From: a phage
Length of the DNA stretch: 64,000 nt
Sequence record: PV467749.1
Reading direction: 5' to 3' (one strand)
Part shown: positions 14,460 to 52,755 of the stretch, in pieces
Numbering within the stretch: position 1 is the stretch's first letter
Layout of the letters: every line of letters starts with the position of its first letter
The notes under the pieces: model-generated
Databases searched by the model: none
What the model was told of the DNA's origin: nothing
What the model saw: only the letters and a program-made list of their open reading frames with translations
Position numbers and translations under genes: made by a program

Positions 14460-14765
14460 TTATAAAAATGTTAAATATTCAGTACTTAATTGTAATAATT
14501 TACCATCATATTCAATTTCAACATATACATCTTGGTCATAAACAGCAACTACACGACTAATAACTCCACTCTTCACCACATTCTTTTTGTAGTTGAATTC
14601 AACTGAGCAACCAATAAGTTTCTTTGATAGAATCTCACGTATTTGATTAGCATGGTCTTTTAGGATAGAATTAATAGATTTTTTCACAACATATCTATCA
14701 TTTAAGTATTTTTTAACTACATCATGCATATTATTACCTTTTGAAGCGGTTAAATGAGTACTCAT
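14460..14765 (-). CDS. hypothetical protein (loosely related to 17548, 19809, 18136 products)
   Basis: 101 aa; shared pattern ..LIG(K/C)xV..Y..G(V/I)I..V..Y..E by eye. Confidence 0.5.
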   Translation of the reverse strand: MSTHLTASKGNNMHDVVKKYLNDRYVVKKSINSILKDHANQIREILSKKLIGCSVEFNYKKNVVKSGVISRVVAVYDQDVYVEIEYDGKLLQLSTEYLTFL

Positions 14766-15492
14766 CTTTTTCTTTACGTAAGTATCTCATCCCTCCACTT
14801 TGGGGAGTTGCAAGAGTCAAATCACCAGTTAAGAACTGACTATCAATCCAGATACGATTACCATAAATGAGTGGGTCGGATACTGCGGTATGACCACTAA
14901 AGACGCAATGGATACCATCAAGTCTAGGGACGTAATATGTGTTATTTTTCTTGCAGTAGTCGAATGTATCACGGTCCCACAAGCACTTCTCAATTATATC
15001 AGCACTAAGTGATTTTGTCCCACTAACGAAACGTTCCCATGTTGTATATTCCAATGGAACACCAGCATGAACTAGTCCAATCTTCAATCCTCGGTGATTG
15101 ATTTGGATAATCATAGGGAGATCCTTTAAGTACTGACGGAAGAACTGTATACCTGTCTCACCAACTTCATCAATGAACTTATCTCCACCATTTTGTACCC
15201 AACAGTGATGCCAGTCACGGTGAGTTTCAGAATCAACACACATGATCTCGTGGTTCCCAGCAATCATAAAACGGTTTTCACCGAAAAGGAATTCAAACAG
15301 TAGTTTGGAATTCTGGTCACCACGGTCAATAACATCACCTACACAAAAAACATAGTCATTATTGGTGATACCAAATTCTTTCTTGGTAGCATCCCACAGT
15401 TTTCCGTTGCCGTGTAAATCACCAACGATATATAAATCTTTATCATCCGGTACTGTAACTTCCAAAAAATGTTTCATTATTGTTCCAACCAT
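14734..15492 (-). CDS. PPP-family Ser/Thr protein phosphatase (lambda-phosphatase/ApaH-like)
   Basis: 252 aa; GDLHG, GDVIDRG, GNHE signature motifs. Confidence 0.8.
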   Translation of the reverse strand: MVGTIMKHFLEVTVPDDKDLYIVGDLHGNGKLWDATKKEFGITNNDYVFCVGDVIDRGDQNSKLLFEFLFGENRFMIAGNHEIMCVDSETHRDWHHCWVQNGGDKFIDEVGETGIQFFRQYLKDLPMIIQINHRGLKIGLVHAGVPLEYTTWERFVSGTKSLSADIIEKCLWDRDTFDYCKKNNTYYVPRLDGIHCVFSGHTAVSDPLIYGNRIWIDSQFLTGDLTLATPQSGGMRYLRKEKDEYSFNRFKR

Positions 15493-15731
15493 ATAATGTT
15501 AGTGTGTTTTGTAACTTGTGTTCCTGCAAAAGAACCATCTTTAAGATACGTATTAACTTTGAAACGCCATTCACCACCGCTAATATACATATCAGCGATA
15601 ATGTACTTCCCATAACCCCTTGAGTTTATCAAACGTACTTCTTGTCCAATATACTTCGGCTTCAAATCATTAATAAAATCATCAGCCAAAGACATAAGAT
15701 ATCGCAAATGTGAATAGTCGGTGTTGAACAT
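15477..15731 (-). CDS. hypothetical protein
   Basis: probable start ATG 15731..15729 (TAATG overlap with upstream stop; GAGAAAG RBS-like); track ORF 15477..15806 starts earlier. Confidence 0.5.
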   Translation of the reverse strand: MFNTDYSHLRYLMSLADDFINDLKPKYIGQEVRLINSRGYGKYIIADMYISGGEWRFKVNTYLKDGSFAGTQVTKHTNIIWLEQ

Positions 15732-15946
15732 TATTTCTTTCTCTTGAAGTGGGATATAATATCTTTTGTTATTGAGATAAAAAGATACACCATAGTTACA
15801 GGCCAAATTATAGCCATCAGTGCTGCTGATTGTAGACTCATTGCAGTTATGATTTCATCTTTGAAACATTTCCAATTCAGTACTAGAAAGTTACATATAA
15901 ATGAGCAAAACGCAACAAATCCATATATTGCAAAAAAGGTAGTCAT
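15731..15946 (-). CDS. small membrane protein (71 aa)
   Basis: two hydrophobic helices (FFAIYGFVAFCSFICNFLVL; ALMAIIWPVTMVYLFISI). Confidence 0.45.
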   Translation of the reverse strand: MTTFFAIYGFVAFCSFICNFLVLNWKCFKDEIITAMSLQSAALMAIIWPVTMVYLFISITKDIISHFKRKK

Positions 15947-17547: not shown

Positions 17548-17844
17548 TTAATATATAATCTCACTTACTTCTATGGTGTAGACACCATCATCAGTCATTA
17601 ATCTAACTGCAACTTTAATATTACTAGACATTCGTGTAACTATCAATCCAATAATTATACCATTCTTTAAAGTACCATTATGGTATCTAACTTTTACTTC
17701 AGTTTTATTATCAATTAAGTATCTTCTAATTATGTGTATTTCCGTTCTAAACAGTTCTAAATAAACTTCACTATACTCCTTATCAGAACCATCAGCACAG
17801 CTATACAATAAATGTACCTGTTCTAACAAAAGTTTTAAATTCAT
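17548..17844 (-). CDS. hypothetical protein
   Basis: 98 aa ORF. Confidence 0.5.
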   Translation of the reverse strand: MNLKLLLEQVHLLYSCADGSDKEYSEVYLELFRTEIHIIRRYLIDNKTEVKVRYHNGTLKNGIIIGLIVTRMSSNIKVAVRLMTDDGVYTIEVSEIIY

Positions 17845-18143
17845 AAGAACCTCACAGATTTAATATTACTTGTTACATGTTTAAACACAGTGTTATTGAA
17901 TACATAACAAATAGTATTAAGAGATTTATAAAAATTAACATCAGTTATTACTGCTTTGGAACCATTGATTAAGCACTGTGATGACGGTAATTTATTTTCT
18001 AATATATTCTTTTCATCTGAACAAAGTGTTCCAATACAATCATAATATAAAGGCTCACCAACTTTATCAGTACTAAGAAAATCGAAAGCAAGATCATCTA
18101 TTAGTTTTATGTAATTGAATAAATTTTGATAGTACTCATTCAT
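17841..18143 (-). CDS. hypothetical protein
   Basis: probable start ATG 18143..18141 (AGAGGA RBS); track ORF 17841..18200 starts earlier. Confidence 0.5.
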   Translation of the reverse strand: MNEYYQNLFNYIKLIDDLAFDFLSTDKVGEPLYYDCIGTLCSDEKNILENKLPSSQCLINGSKAVITDVNFYKSLNTICYVFNNTVFKHVTSNIKSVRFL

Positions 18144-18390
18144 TGTCAATCCTCTTGAATTTAGCATTATTCGAATAAGTATATGAATGTCCAAAATCAT
18201 TTACACCATGCACATTCAATACACCGTCGATGAAATAGATTCGGTCAATGGTGAGTTCACGTTTATAATCCGAATCATCATACCAGCACAGAACACGAAT
18301 ACCTTTATACTTTGTAGTTAGCTCTTTTTCTAATGTAACTAAGTACTCAATATAACTTTTGAATAGCTCTAAGTCCTGCTCAAACATCAC
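18136..18390 (-). CDS. hypothetical protein
   Basis: 84 aa ORF; 4-nt overlap with upstream gene. Confidence 0.5.
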   Translation of the reverse strand: MMFEQDLELFKSYIEYLVTLEKELTTKYKGIRVLCWYDDSDYKRELTIDRIYFIDGVLNVHGVNDFGHSYTYSNNAKFKRIDNE

Positions 18391-18647
18391 TGTTCCTCGT
18401 ATAATTCTATGTCATCGACACCAACTTGGCGAATTGCATTGCTTCTTTTGAATGTATCTTTTTCAAATAAACACACAGTTAAACGTATTTCACACTTCAA
18501 TGCACTGTAATAAATCATATCAATAACACCATATGTTTCATACATTTCTACGTATACATTTCGTCCTAAGTACTTTTCTTCTAAATCAGTAATTAGACTA
18601 TTGATAAGATTACCTATCTGTGATATATCTGTGTGAAATTTATCCAT
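18387..18647 (-). CDS. hypothetical protein
   Basis: 86 aa; GAGAGGA RBS upstream of ATG. Confidence 0.5.
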   Translation of the reverse strand: MDKFHTDISQIGNLINSLITDLEEKYLGRNVYVEMYETYGVIDMIYYSALKCEIRLTVCLFEKDTFKRSNAIRQVGVDDIELYEEQ

Positions 18648-18872: not shown

Positions 18873-19805
18873 TTAGAAATTTCCTTCAGCCACTTGGAAA
18901 ACTTTCAACCCAAGTAACTTACGCCACATGAATACAACTTGATTGCGGTCATCATAAACCTTTTTAACATCGTAATGATCAACCACATTTTTCATGTACA
19001 GGTCGAATTTTACAACATCATCAGGACGTTTATCATCAATGTCTCGCATAAACAATGCATCATAAGGAACACCCCAATTCTTAAGCCACTGTTCGGTATC
19101 AGCACGACACCCTTCAGTACGCCCACTCATGACGATAATCTTGCGTTTATGAAAAACTGCTTCTGCGATAATAGACAAAATAACTTCGTCGTCTGGTGTA
19201 TCCTGGAGTACAGTACTTTCATCGAACGGGTTACGTCCCCATTTATGAGCAAGAGTACCGTCGATATCAACGATAATAGCAGCTTCTCGTGAATTACCAT
19301 AGTAACCAATGTGTAATGCCTTACTATAATAGTACGTATCTGCCATAGTGTCAATGATATTATCTTGTACTGAACGCTCACGCTGGAGGTTATATTTCTT
19401 ACAAAGTTTTACGAACTCTTTAATCTTAAAGAATTCATGAACATCTGCACCACGGTCTTCATTAGGTACAAAATCATCATAGAAGTTCTTTTCTTTGTAA
19501 TCATAACCATTATCTATAGCCCATACTTTCCATAGATTACGGAAATGTTGTTTAAGGTTCGTATCGGATATGATGATGTTCCAACCATTCTCTGCTGCTG
19601 AATTTGCTGCACTGAACTGTAAATTAGTTACGTACTGCTCATTAGCATCGTTGAATTTGTAAGCATCATGTGACCCAGCCATAGATTCACGAATATCATC
19701 ACGGTTGATGTTGATAGTCTTGGATTTGGCTTTTTTAATCTCTTGCACTGCCCATGTAGTTTTACCACACCCAGGCAATCCAACTGTTAGTGTGATAGTT
19801 GGCAT
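18873..19805 (-). CDS. pseT: polynucleotide 5'-kinase/3'-phosphatase (T4 PseT-like)
   Basis: 310 aa; N-terminal kinase P-loop GLPGCGKT; C-terminal HAD phosphatase motif IVDIDGTL; N-terminus resembles T4 Pnk as recalled. Confidence 0.85.
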   Translation of the reverse strand: MPTITLTVGLPGCGKTTWAVQEIKKAKSKTININRDDIRESMAGSHDAYKFNDANEQYVTNLQFSAANSAAENGWNIIISDTNLKQHFRNLWKVWAIDNGYDYKEKNFYDDFVPNEDRGADVHEFFKIKEFVKLCKKYNLQRERSVQDNIIDTMADTYYYSKALHIGYYGNSREAAIIVDIDGTLAHKWGRNPFDESTVLQDTPDDEVILSIIAEAVFHKRKIIVMSGRTEGCRADTEQWLKNWGVPYDALFMRDIDDKRPDDVVKFDLYMKNVVDHYDVKKVYDDRNQVVFMWRKLLGLKVFQVAEGNF

Positions 19806-19808: not shown

Positions 19809-20138
19809 TTAATCCTCTAAAAATTTAACATGCTCTATATTATGATAGGTGAGCCATTCCTGTGGTGTTCCCTTGCGTATTAAAACACCAATATACGCAA
19901 TACCATTAATTAGACCATTACTATCAGTATTCACATCAACTTTCACAATCTCGGAATCGTACCAGTGTTTGAATGTGTAATCCCAACATCTGACTTTCTT
20001 TCCAATAAGATTGCTCTTGTATTTGTCAATCATTTCATCGACGATAGTTTGTACTGAATTTTTAATTTCAGCTTCTACTGACTTTATATGTAGTAAATTA
20101 CTTTGTGCATTGTTTATCATTGTATTTCCCAATCCCAA
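19809..20138 (-). CDS. hypothetical protein
   Basis: 109 aa; start may be internal Met (20120). Confidence 0.5.
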   Translation of the reverse strand: MGLGNTMINNAQSNLLHIKSVEAEIKNSVQTIVDEMIDKYKSNLIGKKVRCWDYTFKHWYDSEIVKVDVNTDSNGLINGIAYIGVLIRKGTPQEWLTYHNIEHVKFLED

Positions 20139-20627: not shown

Positions 20628-21770
20628 CTAAAAATCCTTTAGTACAATTTTCATGTACTTAATAAGAGTCTCTTTGTAATCGACTTTCTTATTGTTGTAC
20701 ATTGCAAAGGCCAAGCCCTGACGATTCAGTTCATTAGTTAAACACTCCTGAACCTTCTTAGCGAATTCCTTTCGCTCCAAGTGCTTGTGTTCCTTGACGA
20801 AGCTTTCAACTTCATCTTGTAAAGCATTATAGCACGAAAAGACTAGTTGTTCCATTCTTAATATCTTTTGGGTAGCATATTCGTCAGTACTGAACAACTG
20901 TTTTAAATCATCACTCGAACCATTTAATACAGCTTCATATAAATGGGAATCGATTATAATACTGTCTTTCGTTAAATGCAAAGAACAATACCAGTCGGTT
21001 TTGATTTTGCACATTGTACCATTATTTAGGATGCACACAAAACCTTCAATGTCAAGCATTTTCTTAACTTCTTCAACACTTTCTTTGAATGTAGCACGAA
21101 CAGGGAAAGTGTAATGAATATCTTTACCTGTCATGTTAGTACTGTACTGTGCAAGGCATGGAAACTTGTTACGTAATGCAGAACCACATAATAGTTCACC
21201 ACTCTTGCGATGGCGAACGTTTAGTACAAATATTTGTTCAACCTGGTATGGTAATACAATACGGTACTCTGGACTTGTATACTCCAGATTAACAGTATAG
21301 CCCAAACGGTCTGCTTCGTCAATGTATTGATACAAATTTTGGTTCTCATTGAGAAGACGAGTACTGTTAATCGCATGGTCTGAATACAATGCAGTATGTG
21401 ATTTACAACGAATTACACCATCATTATCACGGTAAGTACTGATTACTGAACCATCCAACTTAGGCATCACTACTGCAATGTCATCGAATGTGGTATCAGC
21501 AGGGAACATTGTAGCAGGATTTTCGTAAGCATTGAAGAACTTTTTCATAGTACGAGCAGCACAACGAATCATATCACCGTCTTCATCAATTTCCCACATA
21601 GAACCACGGGTTTCTAATGCATTGGGTTGCATGAAATCGGTATATGATGCTAGACGATAACTGAATACACGATACGTTCCACCAGCAGGACTTTTATGAT
21701 CCACATAAAAGAAAGCCTCACGGGTATTACATAAGTGCATTAAATCTTCATATATTTGTAAAAGGGTCAT
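20628..21770 (-). CDS. rnlA: RNA ligase 1 (T4 RnlA-like)
   Basis: 380 aa; covalent nucleotidyltransferase lysine motif PKLDGS; N-terminal region FFYVDHKSPAGGTYRVFSYRLASY resembles T4 Rnl1 as recalled. Confidence 0.8.
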   Translation of the reverse strand: MTLLQIYEDLMHLCNTREAFFYVDHKSPAGGTYRVFSYRLASYTDFMQPNALETRGSMWEIDEDGDMIRCAARTMKKFFNAYENPATMFPADTTFDDIAVVMPKLDGSVISTYRDNDGVIRCKSHTALYSDHAINSTRLLNENQNLYQYIDEADRLGYTVNLEYTSPEYRIVLPYQVEQIFVLNVRHRKSGELLCGSALRNKFPCLAQYSTNMTGKDIHYTFPVRATFKESVEEVKKMLDIEGFVCILNNGTMCKIKTDWYCSLHLTKDSIIIDSHLYEAVLNGSSDDLKQLFSTDEYATQKILRMEQLVFSCYNALQDEVESFVKEHKHLERKEFAKKVQECLTNELNRQGLAFAMYNNKKVDYKETLIKYMKIVLKDF

Positions 21771-22060
21771 TTTATTACCTCTATATCTACATCTGTGCCA
21801 TAGTAGGAAACGTAACCATTATCCGACTTACATTGAATTGATAACTCAGATTCATAGTATGTTACTTTGATCACTGTTAGTACTTTTTCTTCAATTTCTC
21901 CCGTTAAATAATCCATTTCACGAACACGAACATTGGTTCCTTTTGGGAGTTCTTGTGCAATTTTATTAACAAGTTCAAAAGCAGCTTCTTCAAGTGTGTG
22001 CAACAATTGCAATCTATCTTGGATATTCATATTATTTCCACCAAGTTGTATCTCGACCAC
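21767..22060 (-). CDS. hypothetical protein
   Basis: 97 aa ORF. Confidence 0.5.
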   Translation of the reverse strand: MVEIQLGGNNMNIQDRLQLLHTLEEAAFELVNKIAQELPKGTNVRVREMDYLTGEIEEKVLTVIKVTYYESELSIQCKSDNGYVSYYGTDVDIEVIK

Positions 22061-22721
22061 CAGACAAAGATTCGTTGTACTGATGCCTGAAATTAGTATT
22101 TGGATTATTTGTCATTGTACTAATAAAATCAAATTTAACATTCTCTTGAATGTAATTAATAACATTATCTTTAAATTTAATAGTACTGAAATCTAAATCC
22201 AAATGTTCATACAATACAGGATGACAAAACTCATGTGTACGCAATGATGGCATGGTATCCTTAATGTATTGCACAGTGTTAATCATTGCATTGTACTCAG
22301 GCATAGCACGCATCATCATTAGCTGAAAGTGTTCTTCCTCTGACATTGACTCATCCAAATCAATAACTACTTCATCATTTTTAGAGTCATATACTTTAAT
22401 GGAACTCTTTGTTGGATCAAGCATAGCCCACTCTGGATACAGGCATGTTTTCCAAAAAGGATTATTGCACTGAAACATACTAATGAGATTTTGATTTTTA
22501 TCAAAAATAGCAAATCCAAGATCCGAACTTGGCTGTACTTCACATACACAAATATCATAAGGGGAGTCTTCAGTACTGAATGATCCAACTACATTTGATA
22601 TATGTGAATATGGAGTTTCTCTTGATTTTAATTCAAAGGCTCTCTCCATACGATTAACCTGCGGTTGTAATGTAATTACACCCCTCAGTACATATAAAAT
22701 TCTATCTAAATCTTTAATCAA
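22032..22721 (-). CDS. hypothetical protein carrying the family-A-like core (SEEEHFQLMMM) and an HEFCH motif
   Basis: 229 aa; SMSEEEHFQLMMMRAM resembles the array core motif; HEFCH fits HExxH but no further zincin evidence. Confidence 0.55.
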   Translation of the reverse strand: MIKDLDRILYVLRGVITLQPQVNRMERAFELKSRETPYSHISNVVGSFSTEDSPYDICVCEVQPSSDLGFAIFDKNQNLISMFQCNNPFWKTCLYPEWAMLDPTKSSIKVYDSKNDEVVIDLDESMSEEEHFQLMMMRAMPEYNAMINTVQYIKDTMPSLRTHEFCHPVLYEHLDLDFSTIKFKDNVINYIQENVKFDFISTMTNNPNTNFRHQYNESLSGGRDTTWWK

Positions 22722-23296
22722 AATTCTATCCTCGTATCGGTTAATTTCGTTCCGTCCATGTACTTAACAGTTATTTCAATGCGACGTTCAGTACTCAATT
22801 TTTGAAGATCATTGTAGTACAATTTAAATTCTTCAAAGAACTCAAGTGGGGGAATATCGTATAAAGTACCAATCTGGAAGTGCTCAGGTAATCCAAATTC
22901 CAATATATCAATCTTAGGCATAAGTCCATCTGCTGCTGCACCTTCTGGAGTACTGCTGTCTGCTATATAAAACATAGAATTACCATGACGCTGGATAACG
23001 AATATGCAATCATCTTCACTTACATAAATCATATTTCCAAGGTATGGATCGTTATCACACAAATTATCATGGACGAGTTGTTGAACTTGAAGTAAATCTT
23101 TTATAATTCCCTGACCACTATCGTCAACTAGAATATGTAAACCAGAACAATCTTTGCTCAACCAGCGGTATCTTGCATCACATCCTGATTCCATAAATGG
23201 ATATTTTGAAAAATCCATATCAGTACCATTATAAAACCAATCGTACCACTCATTACGCATAGTAATCAGCTTAGTACATAATTCTAATACATTCAT
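22718..23296 (-). CDS. hypothetical protein with family-A-like core (PEHFQIGTLYD)
   Basis: 192 aa. Confidence 0.55.
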   Translation of the reverse strand: MNVLELCTKLITMRNEWYDWFYNGTDMDFSKYPFMESGCDARYRWLSKDCSGLHILVDDSGQGIIKDLLQVQQLVHDNLCDNDPYLGNMIYVSEDDCIFVIQRHGNSMFYIADSSTPEGAAADGLMPKIDILEFGLPEHFQIGTLYDIPPLEFFEEFKLYYNDLQKLSTERRIEITVKYMDGTKLTDTRIEF

Positions 23297-23938: not shown

Positions 23939-24667
23939 TTAGAAATATACCATACCCATCAATTCTGAATCTTCAGGACGAGTATAACTTTGTTTTTTAA
24001 CTTTAAAGTAGAAGGATTCATTATCTTCTAAATTATAACGTTTCTTTAAGCAACGGGTGTATGTTTGGCAATTAGGTGAAACCCATTCATAAACATGAAC
24101 ACCATTTTCATCATAACCATTAATACTACAACGGTTTCCTTCGTGTTTCTTGAAGTTTTTACTCTTCTCAGTGAATTCTTTTACCGATGTAGAGGCTGGT
24201 TTTTTATATTCAAATGGAACTTCTGTTATACGAAAATAGAAATATTGTTCGTCTTCATCATATCCAACGAGCACTGTGTTAGTTTCACGTACATTGTAAT
24301 GATTCTTACTTTTCAATTCATTTTCGTATATATCTTTTAATACCTCATCGAATACAATATCACTTGCTGCATTTGGGTCTGAAACCCCACTAATACGGCG
24401 TTCAATAATAAAATCGGTGAATTTGCGGTCTTCTGAAATATCTTCATTCATATAAAGACCTACGAACTTATCCTTGTATGTCTTTACGCTATATTGTTTG
24501 CTTTGAACTTCACTATAAACATCAGCTAACATGTTAGCTTGTCCACATTGTATACCACTAGATGAATATGCAGCAGCATGTTCAGCCATAACAGATGTTA
24601 ACATTTGGAAATTTGCAATATTGAGTTGATTCGCCATTTCTGTTGCAAATTTTATATTATCTATCAT
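23939..24667 (-). CDS. hypothetical protein
   Basis: 242 aa ORF. Confidence 0.55.
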   Translation of the reverse strand: MIDNIKFATEMANQLNIANFQMLTSVMAEHAAAYSSSGIQCGQANMLADVYSEVQSKQYSVKTYKDKFVGLYMNEDISEDRKFTDFIIERRISGVSDPNAASDIVFDEVLKDIYENELKSKNHYNVRETNTVLVGYDEDEQYFYFRITEVPFEYKKPASTSVKEFTEKSKNFKKHEGNRCSINGYDENGVHVYEWVSPNCQTYTRCLKKRYNLEDNESFYFKVKKQSYTRPEDSELMGMVYF

Positions 24668-26669: not shown

Positions 26670-26862
26670 GAATACGCTCACATGCCAGACAATAAATGCA
26701 CTCAATGTCAGGTCGCCATGATTTATCAAAATCTTTGTGCTGTTCTTCAGTGTATTCCGAATCATCATTGATGGGAAAGAAATCACCAGCACCAGAGGCC
26801 CAGTCTGAATCTAAACGGAAACGAGCTAATTGAGTACTGTTGCAATATGGACATTTATTCAA
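26662..26862 (-). CDS. small zinc-ribbon protein (66 aa), TTG start
   Basis: CPYC ... CIYCLAC motifs; only in-frame start is TTG overlapping the upstream stop, so uncertain. Confidence 0.35.
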   Translation of the reverse strand: MNKCPYCNSTQLARFRLDSDWASGAGDFFPINDDSEYTEEQHKDFDKSWRPDIECIYCLACERIHD

Positions 26863-27139
26863 AATTTATTCCTTCTAACTGATATACGTTTAATGAAAAT
26901 GACCCACTATTATTATCGCATCTGAAACACAGTGTTAAAGAACCATTAAAACTAACAACATCAGTACATATACATTTTTCACCATTGGATATGATAGATT
27001 TTCCTATATATAAATCTCTTACTATAGTACGGTAATGTTGCCATAAAAAATAATACACACTTTCATAGTACTCATCTTTTACATATGACAAGTATAAGAA
27101 TTTATAAAATACTTGTATTTCCTTTAAGTTGTTTTTCAT
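26855..27139 (-). CDS. tandem family C member (94 aa)
   Basis: N-terminus MKNNLKEIQVFYKFLY. Confidence 0.55.
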   Translation of the reverse strand: MKNNLKEIQVFYKFLYLSYVKDEYYESVYYFLWQHYRTIVRDLYIGKSIISNGEKCICTDVVSFNGSLTLCFRCDNNSGSFSLNVYQLEGINFE

Positions 27140-27413
27140 TCTCCAACTCCAGTAAATTTACACCAATCCAATCAACATCACTATCAGTACTTAATTCCAA
27201 TCGTAGCTTACCGCTATGACTAACAATATCTCGGAATTTGTATATTTTATTATCACGAACTATACACAAATCATGGTAATATTCATGTAATTCATCCAAA
27301 AACTTTATCCATACCGAACGATAGATTTCACCGTAGAGATATTCTCCAGCATCAACCGTAGCGTATTGGATATACAAAAATTTGTATGTGAATTGTATAT
27401 CATTAAGATTCAT
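27102..27413 (-). CDS. tandem family C member (103 aa)
   Basis: N-terminus MNLNDIQFTYKFLY. Confidence 0.55.
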   Translation of the reverse strand: MNLNDIQFTYKFLYIQYATVDAGEYLYGEIYRSVWIKFLDELHEYYHDLCIVRDNKIYKFRDIVSHSGKLRLELSTDSDVDWIGVNLLELENEKQLKGNTSIL

Positions 27414-27423
27414 ATGTCAATCC

Positions 27424-27735
27424 TTATAGGTCTGTCAACTTCAAAACTTTGATCTCCATAAATTCCCTATCAGTTTTTTCAAGAAATTCAACATGGATAA
27501 TACCTTGATAAGATTTGACACCTGAGTATTCGAATATATCATCGCCATCAGTGTAAGTACTGTAATTCTTTTTTATATATTCAGCAATAGAATCTAAGTA
27601 ATCATAGTAATTATTAATAAATGGTGATTCTTTTGATTCGACATGTTCACCAATCTTCCCACTAAAAAGATACATGTCATACAAACCATATATATTTTTA
27701 TATGTGAATTGAACATCATTCAAATTTAATTTCAA
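27424..27735 (-). CDS. tandem family C member (103 aa)
   Basis: N-terminus MKLNLNDVQFTYKNIY. Confidence 0.55.
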   Translation of the reverse strand: MKLNLNDVQFTYKNIYGLYDMYLFSGKIGEHVESKESPFINNYYDYLDSIAEYIKKNYSTYTDGDDIFEYSGVKSYQGIIHVEFLEKTDREFMEIKVLKLTDL

Positions 27736-27992
27736 GGGAATATCTCCAGAGGAACACTCGTAAATCCAAAATCAGTGTAGAACTGTACCTCTACTTTACC
27801 ATCGAGCTTAATGATTATATCTGAAAATTCTGCATGATCGTTGTTGATAATTACAGTACTGAATTTTTCTTTAATCCTCTCACGCACAATATTAATCATT
27901 TCAATACATGTATCTTCTAAAAATATACTATTATTTTTATTTGCTAGGTCACGAATGCACTTGAATGTTAATTGGAAATCTTTATAATTCAT
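27732..27992 (-). CDS. tandem family C member (86 aa)
   Basis: N-terminus MNYKDFQLTFKCI. Confidence 0.55.
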   Translation of the reverse strand: MNYKDFQLTFKCIRDLANKNNSIFLEDTCIEMINIVRERIKEKFSTVIINNDHAEFSDIIIKLDGKVEVQFYTDFGFTSVPLEIFP

Positions 27993-28258
27993 ATATTCAC
28001 CAAATCAACAGAGAATAAGTCGTTATCAAATTTATATGAAAGTACTAATCTACCACCAAAACTATCGACTCTAAGTATCTTTCGTTTTTTTCCATTAATG
28101 AAAATTTCAGTATTAACAAAATACTCACGTAATTCTTCTAGGTAATTTGACCATAATTTATGAGTAAACGCATTTTTATTAATTGTATTAGTACTTCTAT
28201 TATTGTGGTGTAATTTAAATAATTCCATATAAGTGAATTGTATATGTTTGTAATTCAT
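27989..28258 (-). CDS. tandem family C member (89 aa)
   Basis: N-terminus MNYKHIQFTYMELF. Confidence 0.55.
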   Translation of the reverse strand: MNYKHIQFTYMELFKLHHNNRSTNTINKNAFTHKLWSNYLEELREYFVNTEIFINGKKRKILRVDSFGGRLVLSYKFDNDLFSVDLVNI

Positions 28259-28304: not shown

Positions 28305-28964
28305 TTATTCATCGTCATCATCGTCGTCGAGATCTAGGTAAATGTCACCATCACCATCATCGAAGTACTCAACCACTACACCAGGAATGTTCAGTGCTGT
28401 AAACATCGCATCATATTTTTCATCAGATGGGATAAGAACAAACTCATCAATGCTTTGAATTTCAGGCATACGATCTTCAGGAATACCCATTTGCAACAAG
28501 GATTGGATGATTTTTTCCTTGTATTCTTGGAACTTCTCTTCTGATTCGAAATCCATAATAAGTTGTGCTACATAACCATCTTCGTTACCAAATGCGATTG
28601 ACATTTGTGCATCAGTACCGACATATGACCATGTACGCTTGCCAGTATTTTTCTCAATGAAGTTCTGAATTTCAAGAACGATTTCATGACGAGAACTATT
28701 GGCAATGTTGTTAAGGTTAGCAACACCAGCAATAATTTCTGAACTATCATTGGATTCTTCGAATGTACCATAGTCACCTAATACATATTGAACACCATCA
28801 CAATGTAATGCATATGCATAATCCAAATCAGCAAGTGAATCACACTTACCACGGATTGGGCGTAGGGAAAGCCCTAGGCGAAGATAACGAAAGTATGTAT
28901 TAGTATTTGTATTTGTCAACGTAATGCTCCTTAACAATATAAAAGTAGTTGCTGTTGTTGTCAA
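28305..28964 (-). CDS. acidic protein with poly-Asp C-terminal tail
   Basis: 219 aa track ORF; C-terminus DGDGDIYLDLDDDDDDE; contains SEEKFQEY (family-A-like); N-terminal 20 aa of the track ORF are low-complexity and overlap the upstream gene, so the start is probably downstream. Confidence 0.55.
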   Translation of the reverse strand: MTTTATTFILLRSITLTNTNTNTYFRYLRLGLSLRPIRGKCDSLADLDYAYALHCDGVQYVLGDYGTFEESNDSSEIIAGVANLNNIANSSRHEIVLEIQNFIEKNTGKRTWSYVGTDAQMSIAFGNEDGYVAQLIMDFESEEKFQEYKEKIIQSLLQMGIPEDRMPEIQSIDEFVLIPSDEKYDAMFTALNIPGVVVEYFDDGDGDIYLDLDDDDDDE

Positions 28965-30546: not shown

Positions 30547-31092
30547 TTATAGACAGTTAAGTACTATGTCATCAAAAGTACTACTGTCAATGTTGTATTC
30601 ATATAAAAATTTAAAATGTGATCCATAACGCATCATCAGATTAAACTCTTCTTCAGTATTAAATTTGTAATCATGAAGAGTTTCAAGGGTACATGTTAAA
30701 CCTAAAAACTCAATAATTTCTGATGTTACATCATTTCCTGAATTGAAGTATTTAACCCAAACACATTTTCCTTGTGGGTTGAATTTTCTATATTCTCCTT
30801 CTAGTTCTCCATTGACGATATGTGCTTTCGCACTGATTAGATTATTACTATAACGCTCTTCGTAGTAGTTCCCATAACGAGCTTTAAGAATTGTAGGCTT
30901 CTTGGTTGGGAATAACTTAATGGAAGTTAATTCAAAACCGCACTGCAACTCTTTGATGTACGAAATACATCCCTTTTCTTTAATCACAACAAAACCAGTA
31001 AAATTCTCTTGGTCTTGGTTCTGATTGTCTGAATCAACAAATTCTAGTGTTTTATAAGTGACGCTTTTAGATTTTTTAATAAATGACATCAT
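30547..31092 (-). CDS. hypothetical protein with MORN/YwqK-like G-x-x-x-G-x-Y repeats
   Basis: probable start at tandem ATG ATG 31092..31087 with AGGAATA upstream; track ORF starts at GTG 31143; GELEGEYRKFNPQGKCVWVKYFNSG repeat-like segment; TEEEFNLMMRY resembles family-A core. Confidence 0.5.
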   Translation of the reverse strand: MMSFIKKSKSVTYKTLEFVDSDNQNQDQENFTGFVVIKEKGCISYIKELQCGFELTSIKLFPTKKPTILKARYGNYYEERYSNNLISAKAHIVNGELEGEYRKFNPQGKCVWVKYFNSGNDVTSEIIEFLGLTCTLETLHDYKFNTEEEFNLMMRYGSHFKFLYEYNIDSSTFDDIVLNCL

Positions 31093-31711
31093 TATTCCTA
31101 TGGAAACATCAATGACTGTACATGGCGTTGACTTCATCAACACCAGTCGAATTATACACGCTTCGCATGTCTAATTCGACGAAAGTACTATGATTTGTTT
31201 TAATTAATATTGACGGGGTTTGCTTGAGCATATTTCATCCCCCCGCAGGGGAAAGAACAAAAAAAGTTTGACGCTGGTGGCCTTCACATAGTTCATATCA
31301 CGAATTCTCTTACGAGGCGAAAGCGGGTTGCTCTGTTTCTCTCTATCGCGGTTCTTGTAGCAACGGTCGTCGGTCTTAAACATCCCGACACATAATACAA
31401 ATACCATATGACCAGTACTTGTATTTGATTTCACGAATTTTGGACGCAACTATATTGTATAAATTACGACCGCAAATTTCTCATGAAATCTCCCTTAGAT
31501 AATTGGTAAGGTGCGATCCTTATATGTCTATCGAGGAACTCTCTTTATCCTATTGGAGTTCTTTATACAGCCGCATTGCCGTGAGTGGTTCAAACTATGC
31601 CATCATCTAACGGGTTTCATTTGCTGTTCGTACTGAAAGGACTACTCATCTACCCTCTACTTTTCGAGTGGATTAGGCTTTAATCATTTCCATATGGAAC
31701 CTTTCAGGATT
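31093..31711. other. ORF-free, GC-enriched island (~620 bp): candidate structured ncRNA(s) or regulatory/origin region
   Basis: no ORF of 60 aa or more on either strand apart from an implausible 81-aa frame; visibly higher G+C than flanks; local hairpins (GTCGG..CCGAC; GTTGCT..AGCAAC); TATAAT near 31151; no tRNA T-loop motif found. Confidence 0.3.
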
Positions 31712-31773: not shown

Positions 31774-32622
31774 TCAGTTGTATTCTGTTTTTTCAGTGAA
31801 ATTAGTTAAGATATCTGCACTTAAGCTTCTCATAACCTCAATCTTACTTGGCATGAACCTGTGCTTGTTTTTTACATACAACTCATCATCTTCAATGAAA
31901 GATGTGAACATGAATACCATATCTTCACGTGGAATTGAGAGAATATTACAGTTTTCATTTTCAGCAACAGGGGAATCATTGTAGTACTTAGAGAATGCAG
32001 TACTTTGACGACCGATTATGATAGAATTTCGGATTAGAAAATTACTACAGTACTGAAAATCTTTGTAGTACTTGTCAAGGATATATGGCATTATCGCTTC
32101 TTTCACTTCTTCATATCCATTTGAACTATCAATTGCAGTACAATAATCTTCTCGGTCTTTATTCCCTCGATGATTATCAAACTCGTACTCAAAGAATAAA
32201 TTTTCATTTAATGAATTATTTGAACCAACTGATCCACTATAGTATGATTTTCTATCATTCATTCGATCATCGGGGCATGATGCATACATAGAAATGTCAT
32301 GTGTTGACGTACCGATATAAATTTTCTTAGTAATGTGATTGTACGCGATGTAATCATAATCTTGTACTCCAGTGAGCATTAACTGGAACATCAATTCATC
32401 AGGAACATCAATCAACGGGTACTCAAACTTCGAATATCTACTACGACAGAAATTCTTTTCAAATGCTCGATATGCGATGAAATCTTTTAGGTTTGTAATA
32501 GATTCATGCTCATGTGTATTACTGGTGCGTACATTGACATTAGTAGACGAGCAATACCCTTCAGATTCTTCTGTGTAGTCATAATAACCCTTACTGTAGT
32601 CAACGATTAGATAAAGTTTCAT
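31774..32622 (-). CDS. hypothetical Tyr/Asn/Asp-rich protein
   Basis: 282 aa ORF. Confidence 0.6.
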   Translation of the reverse strand: MKLYLIVDYSKGYYDYTEESEGYCSSTNVNVRTSNTHEHESITNLKDFIAYRAFEKNFCRSRYSKFEYPLIDVPDELMFQLMLTGVQDYDYIAYNHITKKIYIGTSTHDISMYASCPDDRMNDRKSYYSGSVGSNNSLNENLFFEYEFDNHRGNKDREDYCTAIDSSNGYEEVKEAIMPYILDKYYKDFQYCSNFLIRNSIIIGRQSTAFSKYYNDSPVAENENCNILSIPREDMVFMFTSFIEDDELYVKNKHRFMPSKIEVMRSLSADILTNFTEKTEYN

Positions 32623-35330: not shown

Positions 35331-35831
35331 TTAGGTCACAGCTTTGTATTTCTCCATTGCTTCGGTGATATTCAATACTGCTTGCGGTACGTCACTTTTG
35401 TTGTATGCAATGGTTAGTTTTTCCATGTTATTGAGAAGACTTAGAAACAATGGAAGTACTTCTGCATTGTCACTGAAGTTACAATCATTGACAGTACTCA
35501 ATTGAAATAACTCACCCGCATCAACATTGAGTGTGTTGTATTCTTTAACAATGTTTTCTTCAGTATTGAAGATGTAGAATACAGTCCCCATGTGGTGTAA
35601 GTATACACCAGTTTCATTCTGAATATGACATGGGGTGATTACAATTGCTGTGTTATCAATATTATTTACTATTGTCAAACGCAGACTATGTAACCCAAAG
35701 ATTACAGTACAATCCTTTGTACTGTGTTGGATCTGGTCACTAGTAAAGGAAGACCCACTATGATTTTTAGAACCATTTAGTATTTCTTTGATAATTTTAA
35801 ATGAAATCTTCATCGAATTAGTTAAAAGCAT
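35331..35831 (-). CDS. array family A member
   Basis: 166 aa; core AGELFQLSTV. Confidence 0.6.
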   Translation of the reverse strand: MLLTNSMKISFKIIKEILNGSKNHSGSSFTSDQIQHSTKDCTVIFGLHSLRLTIVNNIDNTAIVITPCHIQNETGVYLHHMGTVFYIFNTEENIVKEYNTLNVDAGELFQLSTVNDCNFSDNAEVLPLFLSLLNNMEKLTIAYNKSDVPQAVLNITEAMEKYKAVT

Positions 35832-36231
35832 GAACTTTACCTTTAAGTAGATTAATTAATGTTCGCATAGATTCAGTACTGACAGTACCAAAATCAACAC
35901 CTAAGCACTCGTATTGAAAGAACTCAATAGAATCAATTGAGTCCAAAGGAATCTCAACAACCTGATTCCCTATACCAGACATAGTAACATTGCTTTTATT
36001 AATCGTCAAGAAGTTTTTTGAATAAGTATTAAATTTTAGTGAAATCGCGTCGGGGTGCTTTGTAACAATGCAGTACTGGGAACCATACACATATAGTACT
36101 TTACTTTCACTAAGATCTGTTTTAAAAAAATGAATCCCATTGAAGTATTTCTCATTGGCTCCCATCGCCGCGATTAGTTCATCTGTTGTTGTTAACCTTG
36201 TTTCGTTCTTCGTTAAACTGTTGAAAAGCAT
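35818..36231 (-). CDS. array family A member (divergent core)
   Basis: 137 aa; core SIEFFQYECL; start possibly internal Met 36165. Confidence 0.5.
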   Translation of the reverse strand: MLFNSLTKNETRLTTTDELIAAMGANEKYFNGIHFFKTDLSESKVLYVYGSQYCIVTKHPDAISLKFNTYSKNFLTINKSNVTMSGIGNQVVEIPLDSIDSIEFFQYECLGVDFGTVSTESMRTLINLLKGKVHAFN

Positions 36232-36652
36232 AGAATACTACCTTAACCATTTGTAGTGTTTCAGACATTACTTCTGATGAAAATTCAACATCATTGAATT
36301 TCAGCATAGTGTTCTGTGTAAAGAAAGTTGCTTCTAAGTCTTCTAGATTGAAGGGTTCATCAAACAAATTAGTACTGAACATGTCAGTCTTCTTCTTGTA
36401 TGTGAACAAGAATTTGGAATTATAACGAAGAACTATTTCATCTTTATTGACCAGAATACGTGCAATGTTCTGACGTGCTAATGTGGTAATGTTTAAATTG
36501 AACACGTTCTTGCGTGTTTCTGTGATATCAACAAAATACCCATCTCCCTGATGGATATTACATCGTACATCCAACCCTTTCTGTACTGTATTGAACAGTG
36601 CATCTTGAATAAAATAATTTGCTGTATCGATGTTTCCTAAAATGTCTAACAT
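36179..36652 (-). CDS. array family A member (divergent core)
   Basis: 157 aa; core LEATFFTQNTM. Confidence 0.5.
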   Translation of the reverse strand: MLDILGNIDTANYFIQDALFNTVQKGLDVRCNIHQGDGYFVDITETRKNVFNLNITTLARQNIARILVNKDEIVLRYNSKFLFTYKKKTDMFSTNLFDEPFNLEDLEATFFTQNTMLKFNDVEFSSEVMSETLQMVKVVFYAFQQFNEERNKVNNNR

Positions 36653-37164
36653 AACTTCTCCTTGATTGCTGTCATATTTAGAAGAAATTCTTCAAGCAAT
36701 TCCTCTGTAACATACTCAACATACCAGAATATCACAATATCTTTTGAAAGTCGAGTATTCTTAAAAATATCTACTAACTCTTTGTAGTACTCAAGATCAT
36801 ATACATCTTTTATAATTAGTGAGTACTGAAATAGTGATTCTTCAGTTAACTTAAATTCTGGATATAGTAGATCATTAAATTCCTTTGACCCAATTAGGAC
36901 TTTAATTTCTTTAAAATTATTTGTTATACCACCATTGCTTCCATATAACGCCGCATATTCCATGAATTTGGCTTTGGGGTTCCAGTCCAGAACCGTTTCC
37001 CCTTTATATGATAAACGATAGAACGCAGAGAACTTGGTTATTTCCCACGGTTGCTTAATGCCTAATTCATGTATATCAATCCCACTGTACAAAATATCAG
37101 TGAATATCTCACCAATCTTCAATAATAATTTAGTACGTGCTAGTACTGTCATAGGTTCAATCAT
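36646..37164 (-). CDS. array family A member
   Basis: 172 aa; core EESLFQYSLI. Confidence 0.6.
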   Translation of the reverse strand: MIEPMTVLARTKLLLKIGEIFTDILYSGIDIHELGIKQPWEITKFSAFYRLSYKGETVLDWNPKAKFMEYAALYGSNGGITNNFKEIKVLIGSKEFNDLLYPEFKLTEESLFQYSLIIKDVYDLEYYKELVDIFKNTRLSKDIVIFWYVEYVTEELLEEFLLNMTAIKEKLC

Positions 37165-37577
37165 TATACACCTTCATATTCATCAAGGAAATCTTCGATG
37201 ATCATTTCAGCTTCATCCATGTGCATAGCATCAACTTCAACAATGCGAACCTTAGACGTATCCCAAATCATATAGCTAGGAACTGTATCTGGTTCGTAAT
37301 CGTTTTTGTACTGAACTGCATCATAGCCGTTAATTTCGCAGTACTCAATCACTCCACGCCATTCGTCGTCACTGCCCATATCCGTCCACAGAAGCACGTT
37401 ATCAACATCAACTTCTAAGGTATGTAAGTATACTGTATCAGCGTCAACAACGTTCAGTGGGCTTCTCAGCTTGCGTAATGCAGCTTCTAAAGCACTGTGT
37501 TTACCTCCCATATGAAGGCCACCATACGGGATATAAAAGTTATCAATTTTTACAGTACTCGCATGATACAGTTTCAT
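37164..37577 (-). CDS. hypothetical protein, not family A; two H-x-S/T-like motifs
   Basis: 137 aa; LYHASTV and YLHTLEV; acidic C-terminus; 2H-phosphoesterase-like is only a tentative reading. Confidence 0.5.
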   Translation of the reverse strand: MKLYHASTVKIDNFYIPYGGLHMGGKHSALEAALRKLRSPLNVVDADTVYLHTLEVDVDNVLLWTDMGSDDEWRGVIEYCEINGYDAVQYKNDYEPDTVPSYMIWDTSKVRIVEVDAMHMDEAEMIIEDFLDEYEGV

Positions 37578-37586
37578 TATTCATTC

Positions 37587-38171
37587 CTATTTCAGTACTT
37601 TGACCAGGGCTTTAACCGCTGTTTCAAGTTGTGCAAAGTCGTTGATTGTAAGATAATGAATACCCAATGTACTCATTTCTGAATCTATTTTACTATACAA
37701 ATCGAACATGTCAAGTAGATATTGATATGTATATGACTCCGATGACACACATGATTCTTGAAATAGACGTTCTTCCATATCATTTACTACTTCATCATTT
37801 GCGTCTCGAATCACACCATCTTTGTATGTGTAGTAAATCTCATCCCATTCATCTGATAAGCGGAATAGTAAAGGTTTACCATTAAACATCTCAAGGTCAT
37901 ATGCATTGACTTCACTCAATAACATATCATCAGGATCAGGTGTGAAATCGAATTGAGCGAGTGAAGAACCATCATAATCCTTAAGGAATATACCAATAGC
38001 ATTCAATTTAACTTCGCCATAATTGCCATTCTTGAACTTTACACGAATATTAATATCAATGTTTTGAACAGTATCATCATCTTGGAATTGATAATCAATT
38101 TTATACTTTTCCCAAAGTTTTTTAATATCTTTAAAGTACTTAATTTTACTTTCTATTTCTTTAAAGTTCAT
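37587..38171 (-). CDS. array family A member
   Basis: 194 aa; core EERLFQESCV. Confidence 0.6.
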   Translation of the reverse strand: MNFKEIESKIKYFKDIKKLWEKYKIDYQFQDDDTVQNIDINIRVKFKNGNYGEVKLNAIGIFLKDYDGSSLAQFDFTPDPDDMLLSEVNAYDLEMFNGKPLLFRLSDEWDEIYYTYKDGVIRDANDEVVNDMEERLFQESCVSSESYTYQYLLDMFDLYSKIDSEMSTLGIHYLTINDFAQLETAVKALVKVLK

Positions 38172-38799
38172 CTGGAACCGCCATCTCTTGTATGTTCTTG
38201 CATTTTATCATTGCACAATTAGTATGTAAAATGATAGCGTACTTGTGTAATGATTTAATTTTATAACACTCATTAAGTACTGAAATGATGCCCCATAACT
38301 CTTCTACATCAATAGTGATAGGTTCACTAGTACTAAGTTGCATTAGTGCTGCTTCCACATCATCTTTGTTATTGATTTTGAACTGCATACCACGTTTCAG
38401 TATTTTGGTTTTTGGGTTATACTCTGCCATTACATCACCTTCAGGGTAACCCTCGTGTAATAATAATGTAGTCTCATAATCTCCACAATTGAAATTAATT
38501 TCATCATAGTCAGGAACACAAATCATTCCTTCACCATATTGATTATCTACTGATTCGATTGTTAAAATACGCTGATGTTCATTACTCAGGATAATAGAAT
38601 CATGCCAGTACTGCGTAGTGAATTTACTACGTTTCTTTTGACAGCACATACTTGACATGGGACCATACTTTTTATATAGGGACTTCTTGAATGCTATCGC
38701 ATCAGGAGCCACCTTAATAACTTCTCGAATTAGGTCAATAGCTTCTTGATAACTTTTTCTCATTTGTCGTACCCATATAAAATATGATCTAAAGTGCAT
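38161..38799 (-). CDS. array family A member (variant core)
   Basis: 212 aa track ORF; core EAALMQLSTS; probable start at internal Met 38763 (ATGA overlap). Confidence 0.55.
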   Translation of the reverse strand: MHFRSYFIWVRQMRKSYQEAIDLIREVIKVAPDAIAFKKSLYKKYGPMSSMCCQKKRSKFTTQYWHDSIILSNEHQRILTIESVDNQYGEGMICVPDYDEINFNCGDYETTLLLHEGYPEGDVMAEYNPKTKILKRGMQFKINNKDDVEAALMQLSTSEPITIDVEELWGIISVLNECYKIKSLHKYAIILHTNCAMIKCKNIQEMAVPDEL

Positions 38800-39311
38800 T
38801 GAACTTCTTCATGGAAGAACAGTGGGTAAATTTGTATCAATTTTTCTTTAAGTTCAAGTGAATGACATAATTCTAATGCTTTGATACAATCTTCATATTT
38901 GACTAAATTATGCAATGTACTTAACTGAAAATGTTGTTCTTCAGAGTAAGCTAAATCATATACCAAATTATCATCTAAAAGGTTTGATTTCTTTGAAGGA
39001 TCAAGTACTGTGTTGCTATGACCTACCCAGAAAAAAGCATTGGTGTTCATATTATTACAACCCCAACCTGCCCCCATTTTCTGGTGAATAGCAAAGACAC
39101 AACTATCATAGAGAATAATACCAAGACGCTCTTCGTTGACATAAATCGTAACACCATCGATTGTCATGGTTATTTGGAAACGCATTGAACCTTCACTTCG
39201 TGAACGTGCACAGAAGCCAAGATAACGGTTAATAATTGTATTGATTTTATCTGCCCATCCTTCCACATCTTTGGATGCACATAATTTAAAAAGATCATGA
39301 CTTTGATTCAT
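38760..39311 (-). CDS. array family A member
   Basis: 183 aa; core EEQHFQLSTL. Confidence 0.6.
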   Translation of the reverse strand: MNQSHDLFKLCASKDVEGWADKINTIINRYLGFCARSRSEGSMRFQITMTIDGVTIYVNEERLGIILYDSCVFAIHQKMGAGWGCNNMNTNAFFWVGHSNTVLDPSKKSNLLDDNLVYDLAYSEEQHFQLSTLHNLVKYEDCIKALELCHSLELKEKLIQIYPLFFHEEVQCTLDHILYGYDK

Positions 39312-39322
39312 GTAGTTCTCCG

Positions 39323-39904
39323 TTAATCAAGCATAAGTGGCATCATCGCCCATATCTTTTTCATAATCATATCTTCAGTAAAAACAAACGTTTTAGGTGC
39401 AGTATATGATATTGACAACCCAAATGGAAGTACGATTGCATCATCAATTATATTATGAATATCAAACCATGTTTTTACACAATCATATGGTGGAAGTTCA
39501 TGTATTGTACTTAACTGAAAGTATTGTTCTTCACCAAATGTACTGCAATCAATATCACAAATTTTAGTGAATTGATGATTCCATTTAGATATAATACTGT
39601 TTTTATTATTGAACATATTAGTTCTATGCATGAAACCATTTCTGCTAATATGATTTGATATTGCGTTTTCTTCAATATCATTGCTTATTTTAAAATTCAT
39701 GTCAAAGTTGTAGTGCGAACTCGACGATTCTTTGAATTTTAAATGAAAATAACGATTGTTATTAATTTCCATTTCAATACAAAACACATCTGAATCAAAA
39801 CGATTAAACTTGTAATCGTTGTCTTCAGGTAGAGTTTGTAATTTTTTCATAACACCAAGCATAGGGTGCACTAAGCTTCTAATAAAATCATTAGTTATTT
39901 TCAT
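39323..39904 (-). CDS. array family A member
   Basis: 193 aa; core EEQYFQLSTI. Confidence 0.6.
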   Translation of the reverse strand: MKITNDFIRSLVHPMLGVMKKLQTLPEDNDYKFNRFDSDVFCIEMEINNNRYFHLKFKESSSSHYNFDMNFKISNDIEENAISNHISRNGFMHRTNMFNNKNSIISKWNHQFTKICDIDCSTFGEEQYFQLSTIHELPPYDCVKTWFDIHNIIDDAIVLPFGLSISYTAPKTFVFTEDMIMKKIWAMMPLMLD

Positions 39905-40397
39905 AGTATTCCTTTAGAACTTTAAATGATTCAACAATACTATCTTGTGTGTAATTAGAACTATATACAATTGCATTTGATTTGATTGACCACAGATATG
40001 ACATAAAGGTTATAACACTACTACATGAACTTAATGTATTGTTTTGGAATTCATTTTCTTCAATGTTATCAGTACTGGTATTGATGAATTGGATAGTATC
40101 TTGTTTCTGATTAGACATTGAAACTAAAGTACAATCAGTATAAGGAGTGTACAAAAACGTCTCATTACTAATTGAACTATCATTAGTATATGATGGTTTG
40201 GTAATATAAATCAAACGCATGATATCACGCTCAATACCCGATTTACGACTTTCCACTAAAGAAATCATATCTATATTTTTCATATGATCAACATTGACAT
40301 GGAACTTTTTGTTTAGAATTACATCTTTTGGGGAATTTTTATATGAAGATAAGATCTCATACATCTCAACTAATTCTCGTGCATTTAATAAACTCAT
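39891..40397 (-). CDS. array family A member
   Basis: 168 aa; core EENEFQNNTL. Confidence 0.55.
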   Translation of the reverse strand: MSLLNARELVEMYEILSSYKNSPKDVILNKKFHVNVDHMKNIDMISLVESRKSGIERDIMRLIYITKPSYTNDSSISNETFLYTPYTDCTLVSMSNQKQDTIQFINTSTDNIEENEFQNNTLSSCSSVITFMSYLWSIKSNAIVYSSNYTQDSIVESFKVLKEYYENN

Positions 40398-42534: not shown

Positions 42535-42599
42535 ATCTTCTCCTGTACTCTGTTAAAAGCGATTATAACACACCTGAATGCTCATGTAAAGCACTAAAC

Positions 42600-42621
42600 A
42601 CAAAAAGACCCATAAGGGTCT
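42600..42621 (-). terminator. intrinsic terminator inside the array
   Basis: AAGACCC-ATAA-GGGTCTT stem followed on the minus strand by TTTGTGTTT; directly 3' of CDS 42622..43206. Confidence 0.55.
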
Positions 42622-46414: not shown

Positions 46415-46447
46415 TGTGATATAACCCTTTACAATTAATATAAAGAG

Positions 46448-47702: not shown

Positions 47703-47707
47703 GGCAT

Positions 47708-51844: not shown

Positions 51845-51846
51845 TA

Positions 51847-52754: not shown

Positions 52755-52755
52755 A

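Follow-up and report, generated by a model that had tools for sequence, protein, structure and literature searches.

Does a large family of paralogous phage proteins extend beyond the tandem array in which it was amplified? This question is raised by two overlapping genes, 22032..22721 and 22718..23296, in a 64,000-nucleotide stretch of phage DNA (sequence record PV467749.1; hereafter the window). The window derives from an Asteriusvirus (PBECO4/121Q-like), that is, a Rak2-like jumbo coliphage and myovirus. It shares 97-98% identity with the Escherichia phages EC.P1, vB_Ec-M-J and fEgEco12 and ~87% with PBECO4 and 121Q, and its gene-sized open reading frames (ORFs) lie almost all on the minus strand. 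A tandem array of paralogous hypothetical genes is known in 121Q and the Rak2-like phages (Hua et al., 2017, PMC5646251; Simoliunas et al., 2013, PMC3622015), and the literature that we found mentions the array or its paralogs only in passing, describing no motif, function or clade near the RNA ligase gene rnlA. A first-pass annotation of this DNA had proposed that the acidic-aromatic-Phe-Gln signature of the array is also present in four larger proteins outside it. The quoted strings do occur in all four ORFs, each on the minus strand. Our analysis indicates that the two overlapping genes are probably diverged members of the array family which form a separate, positionally conserved clade beside rnlA, and that the other two proteins are not relatives. 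The features on which the argument turns are as follows.

35331..63067, minus strand: main tandem array of 45 motif-bearing paralogs (103-212 amino acids), with a few degenerate or unrelated ORFs interspersed
22032..22721, minus strand: coding sequence of 229 amino acids, very probably a diverged family member, of the rnlA-proximal clade; contains DESMSEEEHFQLMMMRAMPEY and THEFCHPV
22299..22346, minus strand: core motif of the 22032 protein (residues 126-141, S-E-E-E-H-F-Q-L-M-M-M-R-A-M-P), which starts a predicted helix (128-137)
22718..23296, minus strand: coding sequence of 192 amino acids, a probable, strongly diverged family member in the slot before 22032; contains FGLPEHFQIGTLYDIPP
22850..22888, minus strand: degenerate motif of the 22718 protein (residues 137-149, P-E-H-F-Q-I-G-T-L-Y-D-I-P)

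Genes are referred to below by their first coordinate.

The array family and the 22032 gene

Members of the array are only ~12-15% identical to one another, and the core [ST]-E-E-x-[YF]-F-Q-x-S-[LT]-[IV] (hereafter the FQ motif) is found in 45/45 of them, about two-thirds of the way along the protein. This FQ-motif family is the one that the first-pass annotation termed family A. The array is kept across Asteriusvirus at 83-98% nucleotide identity, is syntenic with those of 121Q, PBECO4 and phAPEC6, and fills ~8% of the 350-kilobase (kb) phage genome. The family is spread over many PHROGs of unknown function, its members matching, for example, phrog_12674, 9317, 13866, 19795, 30978 and 29816; searches of Pfam and NCBIfam returned no annotation for the family, no PHROG was informative and no relative was found in the PDB. 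An exhaustive protein search with the array profile among 1.84 billion representatives recovered 142 clusters (50% identity) at E <= 1e-3, and a word-indexed protein search with the same profile gave only 10 matches, owing to the database-size E-value. The public matches that could be placed are all in Rak2-like phages. One of the 142 clusters is a false positive, the public tandem-repeat protein P0130 (773 amino acids), which has 13 tandem copies of YRVTFQHPLILQDP and was hit by the motif part of the profile (E 7e-5).

Dispersed members were sought across the 64-kb window by two scores derived from the 45 array members. The first was a position-specific scoring matrix (PSSM) of the 14-residue motif, applied to the 81 non-array minus-strand proteins and to 200 shuffles, on which the array members themselves score 13-39 bits. 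The second was a full-length hidden Markov model (HMM) of the family, searched against all 367 six-frame ORFs of the window (322 of them non-array); an expanded version with 149 public family sequences added gave the same picture. The 22032 protein was the best non-array match to the HMM (18.0-18.4 bits, E 4.6e-5 to 7.5e-5), and its motif scored 16.9 bits with the PSSM, within the array range (set-wide p = 0.005). Among the four proteins flagged initially, 22032 (E 4.6e-5) and 22718 (E 0.017) came out on top, and 28305 (E 3.7) and 30547 (E 21) lay in the noise. The proposal that the family signature occurs outside the array thus stands for 22032, which is clearly a homolog, and in all probability for 22718, and fails for the other two.

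The relationship of 22032 to the array extends well beyond the motif. Searches by tblastn and with profiles recovered 22 ortholog clusters, with identity down to ~20%, and all 23 sequences of the resulting set score at least as high with the family HMM as the best unrelated window ORF. In their alignment F29, D74, W98, E128, E130, H131, F132, Q133, P141 and Y171 are invariant; because E-x-E-H-F-Q is thereby fixed in 23 sequences, the FQ motif is the most conserved part of the protein. When the profile of the 23 sequences was compared with that of 29 long-form array members by hhalign, 82 columns were aligned (82% probability, E 1e-5), which cover the strands before the motif, the motif helix, the long helix and a shared F-x-h-D-h strand (GFSIDYxHMD versus SFYLDLEYLD). 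A direct BLASTP comparison with the array member 38760..39311 gave 29% identity over 86 amino acids (E 2e-6). Homology of 22032 with the FQ family is therefore well supported, and we regard 22032 as very probably a diverged member of that family. As a side observation, the gp378c annotation of phAPEC6 (MK817115.1, 2084..2476) covers only the C-terminal 130 amino acids of the 22032 ortholog, the full 229-amino-acid frame being intact there at 91% identity by tblastn, which is an inconsistency of annotation among records.

Predicted structures point in the same direction. The AlphaFold2 (AF2) models of 22032 (mean predicted local distance difference test score, pLDDT, 77; predicted template modeling score, pTM, 0.74) and of the array member 51356..51844 (pLDDT 81, pTM 0.78) show the same order of elements, namely an N-terminal helix, a beta region, a short motif helix, a long helix, a strand and a C-terminal helix. 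For the array member, the motif is modeled as a helix and falls where the prediction is best (block pLDDT 96-98). A Foldseek search of BFVD with the 22032 model returned its own orthologs first and then uncharacterised proteins of RaK2, GAP32 and Yersinia and Erwinia Rak2-like phages. One of these neighbours, H6X4N8, was mapped by its length and by sequential accession numbers to RaK2 ORF431, an array gene of that phage whose product contains DDELYFQYSTLY and reaches 22 bits with the family HMM. Two observations weigh against the assignment of 22032 to the family. The neighbours in BFVD beyond the orthologs have probabilities of 0.87-0.92 but template modeling (TM) scores of only 0.24-0.38, and a smaller 22032 profile of 8 sequences aligned to the array over 16 columns only. 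The comparison of these models is supportive, not decisive.

The 16 columns of the smaller profile are just those of the motif, as would be expected if the motif were an independent short module, either a docking peptide or a protease site of the TEV/3C type, which recurs in unrelated proteins including 30547 and 28305. The recognition sequence of the TEV/3C-type proteases is ENLYFQ|S/G. The family consensus E-E-x-[YF]-F-Q resembles its P6 to P1 positions, several array members read EEMYFQGS or EEGYFQGS, and the orthologs of 30547 carry E-D-E-x-F-N-[LI]-x-M-x-Y-G, for which the alignment with the 22032 motif is 17 columns long (E 0.008). However, the deeper profiles align over 82 columns and the BLASTP matches of 22032 and 22718 to array members extend over 86 and 47 residues, respectively; the order of secondary-structure elements is common to the models of 22032 and of the array member; and the prediction makes the motif a well-ordered helix rather than an exposed linker. 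In addition, the residue after the Gln varies among N, Q, Y, E, L, M, G, H, T and A, whereas TEV protease needs G or S, the FQ of 28305 is unconserved, and the 30547 profile reaches only 0.5-5% probability against the family. We therefore consider an independent module very unlikely, and the likeness to a protease site coincidental.

The two flagged proteins that drop out are the following.

28305..28964, minus strand: coding sequence that contains FESEEKFQEYK; a conserved protein of another family
30547..31143, minus strand: coding sequence that contains NTEEEFNLMMRYG; likewise a conserved protein of another family; a shorter start, at 31092, had been used previously

Both have orthologs in 70 phage records each, across all Rak2-like genera. 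In the orthologs of 28305 the Gln of the FQ (Q146) is replaced by I, E or N, which gives FI, FE or FN, and its scores are at chance level (PSSM -5.1, HMM E 3.7-20, hhalign 0.2% against the array). The 30547 protein has F-N rather than F-Q, is likewise at chance level (PSSM -2.2, HMM E 0.78-21) and gives profile-profile probabilities of 0.5% against the array and 5% against the 22032 orthologs; the signature quoted above, which lies near its C-terminus, is conserved as its own. A third protein, that of 31774..32622 (minus strand, 282 amino acids), which had not been flagged initially, carries PDELMFQLMLTG at residue 79. It lies in the noise with the HMM and ranks 2-6 of 81 by hhalign at no more than 2.4% probability, and it is probably unrelated to the FQ family. 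Separately, 28305 is very acidic (isoelectric point, pI, 4.1; net charge -27), and its poly-Asp/Glu tail at the C-terminus is retained in the SE_PL and Erwinia orthologs examined; 30547, which lies directly upstream of a dam methylase gene in the genomes examined, has a Gly/Tyr-rich middle that by eye resembles MORN/YwqK-type repeats and has no match in Pfam.

The HEFCH segment of 22032

The 22032 protein also contains a pentapeptide that had been put forward, with reservations, as an HExxH metallopeptidase motif.

22221..22235, minus strand: HEFCH (residues 163-167), of which the first His (H163) alone is ~90% conserved

A zinc metallopeptidase that uses HEFCH as its active site would share with the HExxH zincins a single pentapeptide, which is indeed present at these residues. 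In the 23-sequence alignment, though, E164 is replaced by D, K, R, V, S or N and H167 by F, N, S or L, so that most of the 22 orthologs lack the Glu and the second His; they read HRLVN, HDIGF, HKLFN, YVKCS, HKIGF and similar at this position. No peptidase match to 22032 was found in Pfam or NCBIfam, nor among PDB sequences with the ortholog profile, and in the model the segment ends the long helix beside a strand, in a fold without zincin neighbours. The proposal is refuted by the lack of conservation and of any family match; we give a metallopeptidase practically no credence, and HEFCH is a chance string. Together with the removal of 28305 and 30547 as false leads, this clears a spurious activity from the annotation of the locus.

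A second family locus beside rnlA

The position of 22032 and 22718 is defined by two RNA-repair genes.

20628..21770, minus strand: rnlA (T4-type RNA ligase 1), by annotation; the downstream anchor of a mini-array
18873..19805, minus strand: Pnk-like polynucleotide kinase/phosphatase, from a reading of the sequence and Pnk Pfam matches on its counterparts in related contigs

In related contigs PF09511/PF20819 are found on rnlA and Pnk-type families on its neighbours. A conserved gene order runs from a 243-amino-acid protein (the ortholog of 23939..24667) through 0-4 ORFs of 156-197 amino acids to the 22032 ortholog, rnlA and pnk, and recurs in distant relatives, namely the phages Turkey5, Hallingskeid, EJP2, fENko-Kae01 and Munch, as well as on three metagenomic contigs. 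An overlap of ~35 nucleotides between the 22032 ortholog and the start of rnlA is usual, and a gene of this type overlaps or adjoins the rnlA start in every examined genome or contig that carries one. The ORFs in the intervening slot are themselves FQ-family members, reading FMSEETNFQGSTIVDIP, FLTEEMHFQASTVLDIP, LLHEEYHFQTSTIYNLP and similar, and the six that were run against the family HMM reach 7.7 to 35 bits. Since the slot ORFs are family members, 22032 and probably 22718 belong to a second, small and positionally fixed cluster of the family. In RaK2 (NC_019526.1), which has a large FQ array (ORF412-ORF439, scores up to 79 bits), the interval from the 243-amino-acid protein to rnlA (45564..48651) holds only four small ORFs (53-103 amino acids), with neither a 22032 ortholog nor a mini-array. 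The conserved adjacency to rnlA may be plain synteny.

In motif, size and orientation, and apparently in the order of their structural elements, 22032 and 22718 agree with the genes of the known 121Q-type array. They differ from the array in that they lie 12 kb away, in a separate mini-array fixed beside rnlA; in that they form PHROGs of their own (32531 and 37163), with no cross-matches at E <= 0.01; and, for the 22032 branch, in reading FQ-x-M-M as against FQ-x-S-T, in an invariant Pro eight residues after the Gln (Q+8) and in being a single-copy ortholog. The first-pass annotation had described larger proteins upstream of the array, a broader module whose small stand-alone versions had been amplified. 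With array members spanning 103-212 amino acids, only 22032 is slightly longer; relative to the direction of transcription, both genes are downstream of the array, not upstream of it; and both are full-length counterparts of the long array forms, apparently with an identical succession of elements. The short array forms, for their part, appear to be truncated long forms.

The case for 22718 is less direct. It ranks second of the 322 non-array ORFs with the family HMM (8.9-10.1 bits, E 0.017-0.05), and a BLASTP match to the array member 39323..39904 (28% identity over 47 ungapped residues, E 1e-4) begins 35 residues ahead of the motif. Both its length and the position of its motif match the long array forms. 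A further link is the Pro at Q+8, which is present in 1/45 array members and 5/189 family representatives, as against essentially all 22032 orthologs and 10/15 of the rnlA-proximal mini-array genes, 22718 included.

Several results speak against membership. The motif PSSM gives 22718 only 5.3 bits (per-protein p = 0.02), which is not significant set-wide. By single-sequence hhalign it ranks 3/81 at ~3% probability, not separable from background, and a slot-gene HMM made from EJP2 and Hallingskeid gives it only 1.3 bits; orthology with the slot genes of these two phages is not demonstrable. Diverged orthologs were sought in INPHARED and IMG/VR and none was found; orthologs occur only at >= 68% identity, the gene being confined to PBECO4/121Q-type Asteriusvirus, with a fragmented copy in SD-2_S15. 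It could thus be that 22032 alone is a true relative and that the resemblance of 22718 (PEHFQIGTLYDIP), which has neither the consensus Ser nor the acidic pair, arose by chance in an unrelated, lineage-specific neighbour. This is a possibility of some weight, although we consider it unlikely. The HMM rank, the ungapped match that begins well before the motif, the length and motif position, and the clade-specific Pro all argue otherwise, as does the slot itself, which in seven other genomes or contigs is occupied by unambiguous members of the family. The low HMM score is no evidence against membership, because with this HMM some canonical array members of RaK2 reach no more than 0.4-8 bits. On balance we think it likely that 22718 is a strongly diverged member of the FQ family, and probable that 22032 and 22718 are both diverged members which constitute a separate clade at a conserved position beside rnlA. 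What is added is a modest extension, namely extra members and a conserved second locus for a known but uncharacterised family.

The TTG start of 22032 overlaps the TGA stop of the preceding gene, 22718 (TTGA), and GAGGA lies 9 nucleotides upstream; judging from this arrangement, the two genes are translationally coupled. A further observation concerns seven ORFs of 84-110 amino acids around these genes (14460..14765, 15477..15806, 17548..17844, 18136..18390, 18387..18647, 19809..20138 and 21767..22060, all minus strand), which seem to follow a common pattern of an N-terminal helix and a beta-rich C-terminal half (for example ...GKKVRCWDY...V.V...) and may be a third paralog family. One copy lies between 22032 and rnlA.

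Possible roles, and other features of the window

The FQ-family proteins are acidic (median pI 4.85; 4.9 for 22032 and 4.4 for 22718), and a search of the family for membrane or hydrophobic segments found none. In phAPEC6 the rnlA-proximal gp378c and gp379c and the array products gp404c-466c are absent from the published virion proteome (PMC7247149 Table 1), and the authors of the CBB study treat the corresponding region as early (PMC5259590). Within the array, sites that resemble the sigma-70 consensus promoter by pattern match occupy the rare intergenic gaps; one of these sites is listed here.

46448..46477, minus strand: perfect promoter-like site of sigma-70 consensus (TTGACA-18-TATAAT with TG), by pattern match only, in the gap before 45935..46414

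Such sites suggest, from the sequence pattern, that the array may be split into several transcription units read by the host RNA polymerase. A promoter scan around 20-26 kb showed no enrichment over shuffles. The gap before 41971..42534 also contains, within the stretch 42562..42623, a hairpin (42604..42623) that resembles a bidirectional terminator and, after it, an 11/12 promoter-like site.

Taken together, the acidity, the absence of hydrophobic segments, the absence from the virion, the promoter-like sites and the early region of CBB led us to picture the family as early, cytoplasmic proteins of two parts. They would be soluble, acidic and apparently non-virion, with a fast-evolving N-terminal helix and beta region joined to a conserved C-terminal helical module that opens with the acidic-aromatic-Gln motif. 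The near-invariant F-Q and the acidic residues before it could be the functional core of this module, either as a shared binding surface or as a fold nucleus, and the variable part might give each paralog its own target. A conserved module joined to a variable part is a pattern typical of diversified host-interaction or anti-defence repertoires. The family may accordingly resemble one in function, as an early-expressed repertoire for host takeover or anti-defence, in which the 22032 type would be a stable single-copy branch co-transcribed with the RNA-repair genes. We offer this mechanism, with its expression timing, binding and targets, tentatively. The poxvirus ankyrin/PRANC proteins and the African swine fever virus (ASFV) families MGF360/505 are multigene families that likewise pair a conserved docking region with one that varies. 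The likeness could extend to many tandem, fast-diverging paralogs near a genome end (in fEgEco12 the array lies at ~27-57 kb, counted from the left physical end, and just inside the 21-kb terminal repeat) and to a presumed interaction with the host; there is no relationship in sequence or fold, and the comparison is one of analogy only.

A more specific role could also be imagined for the 22032 type. The RnlA-Pnk RNA-repair module counters anticodon nucleases, and, because the gene overlaps or adjoins the rnlA start wherever examined, its product might be a dedicated partner of that module and the founder type of the family, with the array members as diversified binders or decoys against host nucleases and defences. 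We hold this to be improbable. Whatever its role, the slowly evolving single-copy branch provides a tractable entry to the family, with one gene to delete or pull down as opposed to 45 redundant ones, and with E128, E130, H131, F132, Q133 and P141 as a set of residues for mutation.

Some ORFs within the array lack a clean FQ motif (38161..38799, 36179..36652, 40394..40822, 41971..42534, 43696..44238 and 47708..48310, all minus strand). Two of them look like degenerate family members, 38161, which reads ALMQLST (12.8 bits), and 36179, which reads ATFFTQNT. Another, 37164..37577 (minus strand, 137 amino acids), has neither the FQ motif nor a match in Pfam; a related record, ph0011, has a "putative ADP-ribosyl transferase" annotated at some point in this region, and this ORF is our guess for its carrier.

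Elsewhere in the window, five tandem ORFs of 86-103 amino acids at 26855..28258 (minus strand) have similar N-termini, with a short MN or MK lead and then D/H-[IVF]-Q-[FL]-T-[YF]-K or -M, and form a second small paralog family. Finally, the 479-amino-acid ORF at 684..2123 (minus strand) appears by eye to fuse a PIN-like N-terminus to a PhoH-type ATPase; the PhoH-like protein gp341c of phAPEC6 is listed as virion-associated (PMC7247149 Table 1).

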